64,000 nt of DNA from Eledone cirrhosa (lineage: Eukaryota). This document shows positions 1,611 to 43,223 of the stretch, one piece after another. Location: contig OZ024746.1 of NCBI GenBank assembly GCA_964016885.1, positions 6,944,001 to 7,008,000 of the forward strand, written 5' to 3'. A program made the position numbers and the translations under genes. The notes below the pieces were generated by a model. The model worked only from the letters and a program-made list of their open reading frames with translations. It was not told the DNA's origin and made no database searches. Each line of letters begins with the position of its first letter. Position 1 is the stretch's first letter.

Positions 1611-2115
1611 AAATGAAATCGAAAATGCAACTGGGGTCTTATTTTTTTTAAAATATATATATTTATTTGGTTCCTTTACCGGTTTCGCAGTTCTGCTTTT
1701 CAAAAGTAGAGTTGAGACGGAGGGTCTGTGGTTTTTCTCACATCTGGTTGGTCTTTCTCATAAAATTCTCTAAAAGGCTACAAAATAAATTCCCAAATAC
1801 GGGCGCAAAATTTAATGAACTTGTTCACGTGACAGCCATAATTTCATTTATAACCAATCAAATTACATTTTTTAAAAAAAAGCCTTCGTGAACCCCCTTT
1901 TTTTAAGTAAAAAGAAATTCAAACACTCATATATGAAAAAACAACCCATCTCAACTCTACTTTTGAAAAGTAGAAGAACTGCGAAACCGGTAAAGGAACC
2001 AAATAAATATATATATATATTTTTTTTTAAATAAGACTCCAGTTGCATTTTCGATTTTATCTTTTTTTCTTTATACGGTTATTTTTCATTTTGTAAAAAT
2101 ACCTCACTTTCTAAT
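1611..2115. mobile_element. Fold-back element with about 130-bp inverted arms, each containing a hammerhead-like motif
   Basis: 1611-1743 is the reverse complement of about 1930-2060; flanked by (TA/GA)n and (TA)n; another copy at 12021-12233. Confidence 0.8.
1960..1995 (+). ncRNA. Minimal type I hammerhead ribozyme motif, U3-A8 variant
   Basis: ctt-TTGAAAA-gtag(aagaa)ctgc-GAAAC-cg-GTA-aag; palindromic stem III ACCGGT; AATAAA at 2002-2007. Confidence 0.6.
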
Positions 2116-2904
2116 ATATATATATATATATATAGTTTTAATACAGATATGTGTGGTTCTGTGTCTCTTCTTCAATGCTTACAAAGAAAAGAAAAGAAAA
2201 ATAGAAAGAAGTGAGGGAGGAAGATAAGTTATAATAATTGGTTTGCGGCCTAGAAAGTATTTTCAATGGTTTAAACTAGATTATAGTTCTAGAAACAGCA
2301 ACTTGTCCTAAATTATAGATAACGAAAGTTCTTTTCGCAGAGTTTATCCCATTATTTCGTTATATGATGTCAGCTACATTAGAAATAAAAGATAAAAGGA
2401 TTAGCGTGACTGTGGAGATAAGAAAATAAATATTTATTGATTTTCTCCGAGTAAATCTTTCAATGATTCTCCTTAAGGGTTAGGAGATTTATTATGTTAA
2501 CAGCCTGCGGAAATATATGATATGAAACATTGCGTTGATAGTGGTAGGTCTGAAAGGTACTCTGAGAAGCTGCTAGGGGTGATAACAGGTGACAGAAGGT
2601 CATAGAAGGTGACAGAAGCTGATAGAATTAAATTTGACAGTTGTTGTAATCTTCAAAGTCAATTGGGGAAAATTAGGCAAAAGTGAAACCATTGAACATT
2701 AATTATTAGAAATATTTTCTGATCCGGTAATATATTGATACTAAACAGTTCGATATCTCTTGACCAGACATTCCAGTTATCAATGACTGACATTGTGTAC
2801 CATACAAAACTTTAAATCAAAATTATGGACAGCTCAACATTTCGATATAAGAAGCGGGAGCACTGAATAATTATCGACGGTTTTGTTTGATATGTAGTAC
2901 GTCT

Positions 2905-3125
2905 CTAGCCAGGAAGCTCGTCAGACCAGTGCTAATCCCGGTTTCGTGGCGTGAAGCGACTAAGAGTATAAGAGTCCCCCTTGTTATTACTGGTACTCAT
3001 TTTCAGCGGAGTATCCTGGAGCAACGTGAAATAAAGTGTTCTGCTCAAGAATACAACACAGAACCCAATCCAGGAATCGAACCCATGACATTATGATCCA
3101 ACACTCTTACAACTAGGCCACACAC
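2905..3125 (-). mobile_element. tRNA-derived SINE family B variant
   Basis: Minus strand has TGGCCTAGTTG A-box-like and GGTTCGATTCC B box, then TTCTTGAGCAGAACACTTTATTTCACGTTGCTCCAG; related copies at 46310-46492 and 48380-48585. Confidence 0.75.
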
Positions 3126-3439
3126 GCCCCCACAGATATGTAATGCTGAATTCAAATCCCACCGAGGATATATCTTAGAGAAGCTAAACCCCGCTGTACA
3201 GATACATTATTTTATCGACCTCGAAAAGATGAAAGGCAAAGTTGACCTCAGCACGATTAGAAACCAGAACTTAACCAAAACACCGCTAAGTCTTTCACTG
3301 AATCTATAACCACTCTGATCTAAATAGATAACACACACTGGCTGTTTGACACTCTACTGATTCTGCCAAAACCAGCTCATCAGAATCAAACAATGAATAT
3401 CTAACTTACCAAACGATCAGGTTACCATTGGTAACATCT

Positions 3440-3825
3440 TCTCTTTCTTTTTCTTTTTTTTCTTCTTTTTCTTATTTTTCTTCTTTTTCTTCTTTTTCTT
3501 CTTTTTCTTCTTTTTCTTCTTTTTCTTGTCTTCTTCTCTTCTTTTTTCTTTTTCTTCTTTTCTTTTTCTTCTTCTCCCACCTATTCCTGAGGGGGTTGTG
3601 GGGGCAGAGTCTTCAAACATTCCTTCCAGTGGGTCCTGTCGGAAGCAACCGTCTCTAACTGATCCGGCTGGAACCCCGAGTGACCAGTCAAGCTCATGGA
3701 TGTTATCCAACCATCTTGTTCGGGGTCTACCCCTGGGTCTCCTGTCAGTGGGTTTTGCTCGTAAATCTGTCCTGCGATTCCTTCGTGAGACATTCTAACC
3801 ATGTGTCCATAGTATCGGAGCTGTT
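3440..3825 (-). mobile_element. 3' end of an RTE-like LINE with (AAG/AAAAAG)n tail
   Basis: Minus frames give QLRYYGHMVRM...RRPRGRPRTRWLDNI, followed by a purine simple-repeat tail at 3440-3575. Confidence 0.7.
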
Positions 3826-4298
3826 AACATATTGAAATTGGAAAATTCAGTACATTGATGGTTGATTGATCTACCATTGAAAATAATTATTTCTGTAGAT
3901 CAAACACTGGAGTTTCCACTTTGGCACCAAGCCAATGTTTATAAGGAGGAGGGCGTGGAGTGGAGAATATATATTTACAGTAAGAGCTGGGTGTATGGTA
4001 CGAGAGACTTAAGTGCGGGTCACTAGAGACAAAACCCCGTCTATTCGTAAACCTAAAGACCTGTGCAGCTGTCCCTCTCTCTTTCTTTCTCTCCCTCTCT
4101 CATATTCTCCATCTCTCTCCCTCTCTCTCTCTCTCTCTCTCTCTCTCTCCCTCCCTATCTCTCCCTCTCTCTCCATCTCTCTCTGATACTGGACATTGTT
4201 ATCTATAATGATATCCTCCAAAGTCACTAGAAAACCCGAGTTCAGAGAGTTGAGAAAGACAAAAGAGGAAAAAGTTTATAAACTAATTATTTTCTTTC

Positions 4299-5140
4299 TT
4301 TGGGGGTGTATACATATTATTTGGGGGTGTATATATATTATTTGGGGGTGTATATATATTATTTGGGGGTGTATATATATTATTTGGAGGTGTATATATA
4401 TTATTTGGGGGTGTATATATATTATTTGAGAGTGTATATATATTATTTGGGGGTGTATATATATATTATTTGGGGGTGTATATATATTATTTGAGGGTGT
4501 ATACATATTATTTGGGGATGTATATATATTATTTGGAGGTGTATATATATTATTTGGCGGTGTATATATATTATTTGGGGGTGTATATATATTATTTGGG
4601 GATGTATATATATTATTTGGGGGTGTATATATATTATTTGGGGGTGTATACATATTATTTGAGAGTGTATATATATTATTTGGGGGTGTATATATATTAT
4701 TTGGGGGTGTATATATATTATTTGAGGGTGTATACATATTATTTGGGGATGTATATATATTATTTGGGGGTGTGTATATATTATTTGGGTGTGTATATAT
4801 ATTATTTGGGGGTGTATATATATTATTTGGGGGTGTATATATATTATTTGGGGATGTATATATATTATTTGGGGGTGTATACATATTATTTGGGGGTGTA
4901 TATATATTATTTGGGGGTGTATATATATTATTTGGGGTGTATATATATTATTTGAGGGTGTGTATATATTATTTGGGGATGTATATATATTATTTGAGGG
5001 CGTATATATATTATTTGGTGATGTATATATATTATTTGGGGGTGTATATATATTATTTGGGGGTGTATATATATTATTTGGGGGTGTATACATATTATTT
5101 GGTGATGTATATATATATTATTTGGGGGTATGTATATATT
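4299..5140. repeat. 21-bp minisatellite (TTTGGGGGTGTATATATATTA), about 40 copies
   Basis: Direct inspection. Confidence 0.95.
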
Positions 5141-5585
5141 CTTCAGAGTAATGTACATCAAGTAATTGTCAATGTTTTGTGTTAGAAGGGCCAATGTCGT
5201 TCGGTATTCAGTAACATCCTTACGTTCTGAATTCAAATCCCGCCGAGTTCAGCTTTCATCTGTCTTTGATAAGTCTCAAGTGCTGATAAATCTAAACAAA
5301 ACCTATTTTAGGGTTAATGTTTAAAATCAGTATTTTGTGTGTATTTCAAAATGTCTAAGAAATACTGGATCGCTTAAAGCTACTCGTAGGACAGATCTTA
5401 AGTGTGTTTTAAAATAACATATGTCTAAATCAAACATAAATTTAATAGAAAATTCTGCTTTAACATATAATTCGATTTTAAGAGATCTTTAATAGTATAG
5501 ATTATTTTCTATCGCTAGTAAAATATACTTTTCTAGCATTAACAGATTGCCAACACAGCAAGATATATATATATATATATATATA

Positions 5586-41856: not shown

Positions 41857-41936
41857 TGACATGACATTATAATGATAGCCACATACATGTACACAACTAA
41901 TTACTACATGATAAAATGCAATCATCATCATAAAGA

Positions 41937-42180
41937 AGTGTATGGGGTAGTGTATGGGGTAGTGTACGGGGTAGTGTATGGGGTAGTGTACGGGGTAGTG
42001 TATGGAGTAGTGTATGGGGTAGTGTATGGGGTAGTGTATGGGGTAGTGTATGGGGTAGTGTACGGGGTAGTGTACGGGGTAGTGTACGGGGTAGTGTATG
42101 GGGTAGTGTATGGAGTAGTGTATGGGGTAGTGTATGGGGTAGTGTATGGGGTAGTGTATGGGGTAGTGTATGGGGTAGTG
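41937..42180. repeat. 12-bp minisatellite (AGTGTATGGGGT), about 20 copies
   Basis: Direct inspection. Confidence 0.95.
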
Positions 42181-42209
42181 TTACCTCTAACAACAACCTA
42201 TCAACTTAC

Positions 42210-42386
42210 CCTGCTCACTAATGACAATACTTTCAGCTCCTCTTGGTATCGATAGACAGAAACACTCTTTAGTAAATCTCCAGCCAAGATGATATTCTTT
42301 AATGTACTAAGGGTATGAATATAAATGTATGTATCGATGAAAGCTACACCAGACAGATCGTTGTCTTTCAATGTCCAAATATAAAG
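42210..42386 (-). CDS. CPSF1: CPSF160 exon
   Basis: LYIWTLKDNDLSGVAFIDT...YRYQEELKVLSLVSR. Confidence 0.95.
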
Positions 42387-42612
42387 CTGAAAAATAAAAC
42401 AAAAAAACAAATCATCATCATCATCGTTTAACATCTATCTTCCACGCTAGCATATCGTAGTAAAGTCTGTCCTCTCAGGTTCAACAGGCCAGTGCTTTAC
42501 CCCCCCCCCCACCCCCCGGTTTCATTTTTAATCAGTGTTAAGTAACTCACATTACTAGACTCACCCCGGGACACATCCGTTACAAGTTTAACTCCCCCAG
42601 CTTCTGCTGATA

Positions 42613-42814
42613 TACGAGGGTCAACTGAACAGTTCATAGGTTGACTATGAATGAGTGATGCTAGAGCTGTGAAATCTTGCATGTATTAATTTCAACTCTT
42701 CTTATTAATAACTGCATTGTTTCTTTCCAAGGACTATGCTTAAAAATAAACCTCATTTGGTCATTCCATGAGAGTATCTTAGTCAGTCTATGAACTTTTC
42801 AGCCAACCCTCGTA
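42613..42814 (+). mobile_element. Mariner-type MITE with TA target duplication
   Basis: TA-CGAGGGTCAACTGAACAGTTCATAGG...CTATGAACTTTTCAGCCAACCCTCG-TA; partial inverted copy at 54077-54209. Confidence 0.85.
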
Positions 42815-43014
42815 GATTATTTTCAACCAAACCTGATGATTGATTTTTCAAATATTTGTGTTCAGTAAATTTTCACTTCATTTTTTTCCTTATATTATGA
42901 TTCTGTTTGATATATGAGTTTTATACATTTTTTTGCTTTAATTCACTATTTATATTAAATTTTTCTAAAAGAAATGTCTTATATGCCTTTTACAGCTCTG
43001 AAATTACATTGTTC

Positions 43015-43223
43015 TTGAAATAGAAATAGAAGCTGCACTGTAATATTTTTTTACTATAATATAGTCTAATAATGAGGCATATAAAGCCACTGAACAGAAC
43101 AAGATGGGTGTCAGCTCACATATGAGCTGACTCCCATCTTTTTCCATTCAGTGGGTTTATATGCCCCATTATTAGACTATATTATAGTAAAAAATATTAG
43201 TGCAGCTTCTATTTCTATTTCAA
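43015..43223. mobile_element. Fold-back element with about 100-bp arms
   Basis: Arms meet at CAGCTCA-cata-TGAGCTG; a related half copy lies at 39614-39745. Confidence 0.8.

Follow-up and report, generated by a model that had tools for sequence, protein, structure and literature searches.

Head-to-head fold-backs at (TA)n tracts of Eledone cirrhosa: ends of Penelope-like elements and their likely tRNA-headed passengers

A 64,000-nt stretch of Eledone cirrhosa DNA (GCA_964016885.1, contig OZ024746.1, positions 6,944,001-7,008,000; hereafter the window) carries nine inverted repeats, which raises the question of what kinds of element fold back in this way and by what machinery they are copied. 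A sequence-only reading had taken all nine for non-autonomous RNAs of several origins that a single machinery of the Penelope-like element (PLE) type inserts at TA microsatellites, and not for miniature inverted-repeat transposable elements (MITEs). We denote the repeats A (starting at 1611), B (16254), C (18817), D (25689), E (25985), F (26281), G (26657), H (31568), and I (43015), and searched the 3.0-Gb genome with each of the nine; 40 candidates were scored per element and 25-30 loci were fetched. Eight of the nine are, with good probability, head-to-head pairs of 5'-truncated copies from several families, three of them being ends of coding PLEs, and E, I, G, and F were likely copied in trans by PLE enzymes.

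In the window, which is (TA)n-rich and has a G + C content of 35%, self-BLAST with masked microsatellites recovered all nine inverted repeats, with arms of approximately 65-482 nt and 74-99% identity, and three shuffles of the window contained none. Their density is ordinary for the genome, with 14 fold-backs in the 64-kb window versus 74 in 600 kb (60 evenly spaced 10-kb regions), 43 of these 74 having an end at TA. As had been proposed, the arms point 3'-outward in all eight PLE-type elements, as judged from upstream open reading frames (ORFs), tRNA heads, or hammerhead cores. The proposed contact with (TA)n was seen in seven of the nine when tails are included, but not in C and I, and the description of the sequences as largely unrelated is correct in general but not for E and I, which are related (68% over 134 nt).

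Three of the repeats, A, B, and D, stem from different protein-coding PLEs, of which they are the 5'-truncated ends; one family is of the Neptune type and two are of the Hydra type, and intact ORFs were found for A and B. Repeat A (1611..2115) joins two 3' ends head to head; its left arm lies at (TA)14(GA)20 and lacks a tail (the longer 3' end), and its right arm has the tail and ends at (AT)10. A second, single copy of this 3' end is located on the minus strand between two TA arrays (12022..12233, core at 12193). In the A search, which gave 22,615 first-look candidates, the element ran upstream into a 775-amino-acid ORF with a reverse transcriptase (RT) and, at the C terminus, a GIY-YIG domain, and Pfam matched RVT_1 with 28.7 bits (cut-off 29.6; E = 1e-6) and GIY-YIG with 27.3 bits (cut-off 22.6; E = 4e-6). 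The motifs of this ORF (CX2-5CxxC linker, DKG, GxKF, and CCHH) are of the Neptune/Nematis type and suggest its placement there. At locus L093, A shows pseudo-long terminal repeats (pLTRs) in tandem, an inverted truncated copy, and a tail at one end; the Neptune-type element in L093 has two ORFs (1288-2517 and 2430-4754) that overlap in the -1 frame, as for a frameshift. Both arms of A in the window have a predicted minimal type I hammerhead whose core is of the U3-A8 variant, with a palindromic stem III (1703 on the minus strand and 1963 on the plus strand). This variant is known from Schistosoma PLEs, as are hammerhead pairs on opposite strands 100-700 bp apart (PMC4209133).

Repeat B (16254..17394) is a head-to-head pair from the 3' untranslated region (UTR) of a very young Hydra-type PLE, with a left arm without tail (16254-16735) and a right arm with a 170-nt tail (16743-17394). 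The element has an 808-amino-acid ORF between 3.53-kb tandem ends, and its copies are 99.8-100% identical. The protein has RWK and DKT motifs, a CxCX5C linker, no CCHH, and CxxC and CxH in its endonuclease, and the target is (TA)n; these are features described for the Hydra clade (PMC8557442). B is flanked by inverted 71-nt copies (96%) of another element (16161-16230 and 17569-17639) whose ends face the TA tract, and a longer copy of that element lies at 27058-27386. Repeat D (25689..25906) joins 3' ends of an older Hydra-like PLE; Hydra-like ORF remnants lay directly upstream in 2 of 25 loci, and the family consensus includes a full type I hammerhead with a long helix II. Thus, ORFs with RT and GIY-YIG that share the 3' ends, for which the sequence-only reading had advised a search, exist for three of the repeats, and its description of all nine as non-autonomous has to be given up for these three. 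A single machinery is also contradicted, because the proteins of A and B can be aligned only weakly (28% over 75 amino acids at best) and there are several further Hydra-like families. Such families, 27-59% identical to B, were seen in flanks and random regions (L005, L100, L137, L149, L314, L332, L340, L347, and L355).

The hammerheads that the earlier reading had attributed to these repeats were found only in part. An Rfam hammerhead scan of the window gave no match, and a strict pattern missed the variant cores. Our own descriptor identified, besides the cores in both arms of A, a core lacking helix II in a single arm of F. The motif of D is decayed in the window copy, H retains a relic only, and none was detected in B, C, E, G, or I.

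Families E, I, and G have a tRNA-like head but no ORF and, by descriptor, no hammerhead. Repeat E (25950..26219) derives from a 258-nt unit; its minus arm (25950-26145) has the tRNA head and a tail, and its plus arm (26156-26219) is truncated and without tail. Repeat G (26635..26944) derives from an older 316-nt tandem unit, with its head at 26728-26802 on the minus strand and a plus arm that begins at the B box. Repeat I (43015..43254) is an older relative of E whose arms are both truncated at the tRNA T-arm, and the window copy begins downstream of the tRNA head; it has a tail on the right arm and no TA tract. A second I pair, absent from the sequence-only list, lies at 39590..39748. Tandem copies show that the E and G units each close on themselves, and one tandem was seen for I (L302). 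For the E head, Rfam (47.7 and 42.4 bits) and ARAGORN (4/4 loci) show a full cloverleaf, the I head was called by ARAGORN in one of three loci, and the G head was called in none of three. Within the window, ARAGORN found no tRNA, and the tRNA head was supported by Rfam for E (33.6 bits; gathering threshold 29) but fell below the threshold for G (27.2 bits). All three families retain A and B boxes, and in each the sequence upstream of the tRNA is complementary to a T-rich trailer, pairing that would raise the cloverleaf on an extended stem. An ordinary short interspersed element (SINE; 38849-39207) has, just past its B box, the same 13 nt that lead into the E head, by chance or through shared origin. 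One contig from DNA-type sequencing runs, which may be of the same sample, spans the G centre without differences (checked at 25400-27100).

The insertion anatomy was clearest in E. A 23-mer of E had 2,199 exact matches in the genome (reversed control, 0), and the first 62 of the 81 places in the first 100 matches, taken in positional order, served as an unselected set. These insertions comprised 35 outward pairs, no inward pair, 2 complex cases, and 25 single or tandem copies, and 90 of 99 outer 3' ends were at TA. The 3' ends clustered at unit positions 154-162 and 195-203, and exactly one arm had the longer end, or tail, in 33 of the 35 pairs. Of 64 arms traced to their 5' ends, 45 were called at positions 47-62 (T-arm and acceptor strand); three of these continue on inspection, leaving 42/64. 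This accumulation of 5' ends at the tRNA T-arm suggests a folded RNA template. A hard stop at a methylated A58 fits only roughly, with the peak 5-6 nt 3' of A58 and three arms passing A58 without microhomology. The ends of several arms lie at a pyrimidine/purine step, 4 nt upstream of where the mature tRNA starts; RNase P is disfavoured as the source of the 5' ends, since several lie upstream of its cut. Pieces of PLE ORFs were present in five flanks of the 62 insertions, and no PLE ORF entered an arm (flanks of 1.5 kb for 42 insertions and 0.5 kb for 20).

A tail on one arm per pair was also the rule in other families: 26 of 27 rows for B (24/25 without two repeat-place rows, L139 and L120), 15/15 for H with the cut set between ends at 183 and at least 249 (a cut of 160 gives 1/15, since both H ends exceed 160), and 25/27 for E, 17/19 for I, and 12/17 for A. 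Each family has two preferred 3' ends, and tail lengths differ among families (about 38, 63, 79, and 170 nt). Pair spans vary widely, from 201 to 736 nt in E proper and from 333 to 6561 nt in B. Except in C, the centres differ between copies, which upholds the view of PLE-type retro-insertions at TA rather than MITEs.

We compared these elements with ordinary SINEs as bystanders, excluding the window and each family's own search loci. The PLE-type families gave 12 outward and 3 inward pairs in 48 clusters, with 50 of 66 3' ends at TA, whereas two ordinary SINEs gave 8 outward and 7 inward pairs in 357 clusters, with 47 of 483 ends at TA (Fisher p 1e-7 and 7e-30; background 9.8%). The numbers for E, I, and G alone are small (5 outward pairs in 10 clusters; 8 of 15 ends at TA). 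The two arms of an insertion resembled each other more closely than arms paired at random, with a distance of 0.044 versus 0.074 in E and permutation p < 0.001 in E, H, and A. E arms shared subfamily alleles in 99 cases and differed in 10, where 41 were expected, and at B locus L144 six private bases were common to both arms. Such sharing in E, A, B, and H likely reflects one source per insertion.

Taking these results together, E, I, and G are likely SINE-like passengers mobilised by PLEs, analogous to SINEs on long interspersed elements (LINEs); what points to this is their PLE insertion anatomy, which is clear in E and I and weak in G. In the proposed mechanism, a PLE protein would cut both strands of a (TA)n tract, and each broken end would prime one cDNA by short AT microhomology at one of two internal start sites of one source RNA. 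Both cDNAs would grow inward and terminate prematurely, at the folded T-arm of the tRNA in most E and I arms, before being joined by microhomology, often at a short palindrome. The tRNA head would likely serve as an internal RNA polymerase III (Pol III) promoter, in place of the pLTR promoter and hammerhead of other PLE RNAs. We consider it somewhat probable that this amounts to a SINE-like class that parasitises PLEs instead of LINEs, in which a tRNA cloverleaf in a circularly permuted unit of 260-320 nt replaces promoter and hammerhead. The class would have arisen at least twice (E/I and G) and would insert one cDNA per strand of the cut (TA)n from two set start sites, with a frequent stop at the T-arm, possibly at a methylated A58. 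Published work accords with parts of this scheme: a tail can be present on one of the inverted pLTRs (PMC3846280, PMC8557442), and in PMC11167929 the tail maps between two RT start sites and the protein cuts and extends both strands. PMC3846280 favours self-priming on an antisense template for such junctions, which alone would leave the restriction of the tail to one arm unexplained.

Several observations weigh against the reading of these repeats as coding PLEs and PLE passengers. The B protein was blank in Pfam and PDB sequence searches, and its UTR has no canonical hammerhead by our descriptor; because of this lack and a unit of 3.53 kb, which exceeds the length of the Hydra clade (<3 kb), we class B as Hydra-type and not as a Hydra member. 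About 10 nt past the tRNA 3' end, all three tRNA-headed families have five consecutive T, which should stop Pol III ahead of the unit body, so that the promoter role of the head calls for caution. The stem around the E head is no more stable than shuffled sequences (z -1.46). Of the unselected E arms that pass the head, only 5/21 stop near the expected Pol III start, although 22/38 did so near the head start by hand count in a query-biased set. A BLAST search for partners of E, I, G, F, and H in sampled flanks of PLE ORFs (77 downstream and 4 upstream, mostly of A and B) found no shared sequence for E, I, G, and F. One tail per pair was seen in only five of nine G pairs, one inward pair occurred in G, and no tail was seen in D (5 pairs) or F (3 pairs). 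I arms are slightly closer than random pairs (p 0.02) but show no allele concordance (58 versus 49; 49.7 expected), and gene conversion between arms could also yield the allele sharing of the other families. Two leads were rejected as well: BLAST aligned E with the B UTR over 23 AT-rich nucleotides (E = 0.003), which was not accepted as evidence of partnership, and motifs noticed by eye, one common to E and B and one in G, lack the core positions of a hammerhead relic.

Two further families bear hammerheads or their remains. Repeat F (26278..26542) consists of head-to-head ends of a 555-nt non-coding unit, found in tandem at four of the loci shown; its hammerhead core at 26383 on the minus strand lacks helix II and has a 3-bp stem I. 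F resembles non-LTR retrozymes, a group of short non-coding tandem units for whose movement PLEs have been proposed (PMC7229834; bioRxiv 10.64898/2026.07.22.740005). In repeat H (31437..31781), the 3' ends joined head to head belong to an element that measures 400 nt or more; the left arm bears a long tail, and the relic hammerhead has a palindromic stem III and an incomplete 5' core. An ORF upstream of H in L441 belongs to another Hydra-like family, and its linkage to H is unsupported. Three further elements of this kind were noticed: a 465-nt unit in L093 (6800-7800) with a canonical type I hammerhead in tandem and inverted copy, retrozyme-like with PLE anatomy; a family anchored at TA whose type I hammerhead has a long helix II (6230-6420 on the minus strand, with a descriptor match at 6406; 16020-16160; and 26942-27074); and a short element between 48-nt direct repeats at TA tracts (11620-11960) with a hammerhead-like core at 11841.

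Repeat C is of another kind, and its inclusion among the PLE-type retro-insertions was wrong. Its 406-nt palindrome (18817-19222) belongs to an apparently non-autonomous Helitron-like element on the plus strand (18094..19222) whose 3' terminus is absent here. Across the loci, the palindrome keeps its centre and its length (373-447 nt in 22 of 25; partial in three) and sits at the 3' end of an asymmetric element of 0.9-1.4 kb; it is not terminal on both sides. The element starts with TC directly after an A (A/TC) in all 15 of the 25 loci in which the start motif was seen, and ends in CTAG directly before a T (CTAG/T) in 21/25. Helitrons have 5' TC and 3' CTRR termini with a short 3' hairpin and insert between A and T. 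C thus appears to resemble non-autonomous Helitrons in its termini and insertion site, but has a palindrome of more than 400 nt in place of the short hairpin.

Other explanations have to be weighed against these results. MITEs or foldback DNA transposons would be suggested by the fixed palindrome of C in most of its 25 loci and by the common junction of some I pairs. However, that palindrome lies at one end of a longer asymmetric element, and the variable centres, spans, and inverted repeats, the many single arms, and the ORF linkage to RT and GIY-YIG mean that this explanation does not hold for A, B, and D-I; for the fold-backs as a whole we regard it as highly improbable. The original idea of nine non-autonomous RNAs served by one PLE machinery draws on the TA target and polarity common to eight of the nine, but is refuted in that form and has hardly any remaining credibility: A, B, and D come from the ends of separate coding families, the tails are not of one length, and C is Helitron-like.

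For E, I, and G in particular, the tRNA head and the lack of an ORF are also what ordinary LINE-driven SINEs would show, with the inverted pairs made by twin priming or later rearrangement. This is largely refuted and in our view improbable: both arms span the same 3' sequence, one tailed and the other not, the tandems are circularly permuted, and the 35 outward and 0 inward pairs contrast with the resident SINEs, which have simple-repeat tails and show 2% inversions without polarity. A possible, though clearly less favoured, alternative is that E, I, and G are PLE passengers whose RNA Pol II would produce by reading through tandem copies, such as those in introns, the cloverleaf being a processing or stability module or inert cargo. 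The T run after the tRNA agrees with such read-through, as do the 16 of 21 head-reaching unselected E arms that run upstream into the previous unit and the headless state of most copies. The A and B boxes kept in three families, and the arms that end 4 nt upstream of the mature tRNA, beyond the RNase P cut, speak for the tRNA-promoted passengers instead.

Published PLE anatomy (PMC8557442, PMC3846280) already includes head-to-head pairs that face 3'-outward, are anchored at (TA)n, and bear a tail on one of the two arms. A, B, and D are like endonuclease-bearing PLEs of the Neptune and Hydra clades in their RT with C-terminal GIY-YIG, partial tandems, inverted 5'-truncated copy, tail at one end, (TA)n target, and microhomology junctions. 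Tails here reach 170 nt versus the 30-40 nt described for PLEs, and B, with its length and hammerhead-less UTR, differs from the Hydra clade, in which PMC8557442 calls the hammerhead universal. The nearest precedent for E, I, and G is Sm-alpha/Sj-alpha of Schistosoma, likewise tRNA-derived, apparently transcribed by Pol III, tandem, non-autonomous, and linked to hammerheads and PLEs (PMC6765202, PMC2770079); however, Sm-alpha has an active hammerhead, and the available text of these two papers gives no PLE-type inversion, tail, or TA targeting for it. Non-LTR retrozymes are also close, but have a type I hammerhead per unit where E, I, and G have a tRNA head, and the word tRNA is absent from the available main text of bioRxiv 10.64898/2026.07.22.740005. 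Non-autonomous PLEs of Chlamys such as MRC1 resemble E, I, and G as ORF-less elements with pLTRs and head-to-tail multimers, but their 3' sequence is common to autonomous families, and the available text makes no mention of a tRNA head (PMC8557442). With SINEs, E, I, and G share the tRNA head with A and B boxes and the absence of coding capacity, but they lack a LINE-type 3' tail and integration and have two internal 3' ends, overlapping inverted pairs, and permuted tandems. Full-text literature searches, which covered few subscription papers, found no tRNA-headed, hammerhead-less PLE passengers, nor did the available text of a 2026 octopus repeat annotation (PMC13282606); such families may be present in Repbase or Dfam, which were not searched.

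The new part is thus the tRNA-headed families that lack both ORF and hammerhead and have PLE insertion anatomy. If this reading is true, PLEs would be a second class of driver for SINEs, which are now classed by LINE partner, and current pipelines would mis-annotate tRNA-headed PLE families as SINEs, MITEs, or tRNA pseudogenes. Being only 258 nt long, the E unit would lend itself to dissecting the cis signals of PLE mobilisation, and the near-strict single tail per pair in five families allows the two RT start sites and the priming on both strands, observed in vitro with one PLE from a lizard, to be tested on genomic data. With a fold-back roughly every 8 kb, such insertions may be a large source of intronic double-stranded RNA.

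The window also contains other fold-backs with a MITE-like look away from TA tracts (34466-34684, 42610-42817, 20394-20587, 29458-29624, 43887-44002, and 60843-61183), the first four of which form one family. A broken LINE with endonuclease, RT-like, and PHD domains lies at 56368-59231 on the plus strand. At 61438-62007 on the minus strand, an open frame without a Pfam match includes an exon-like stretch that we take to resemble CPSF1, and the window may therefore be intronic.

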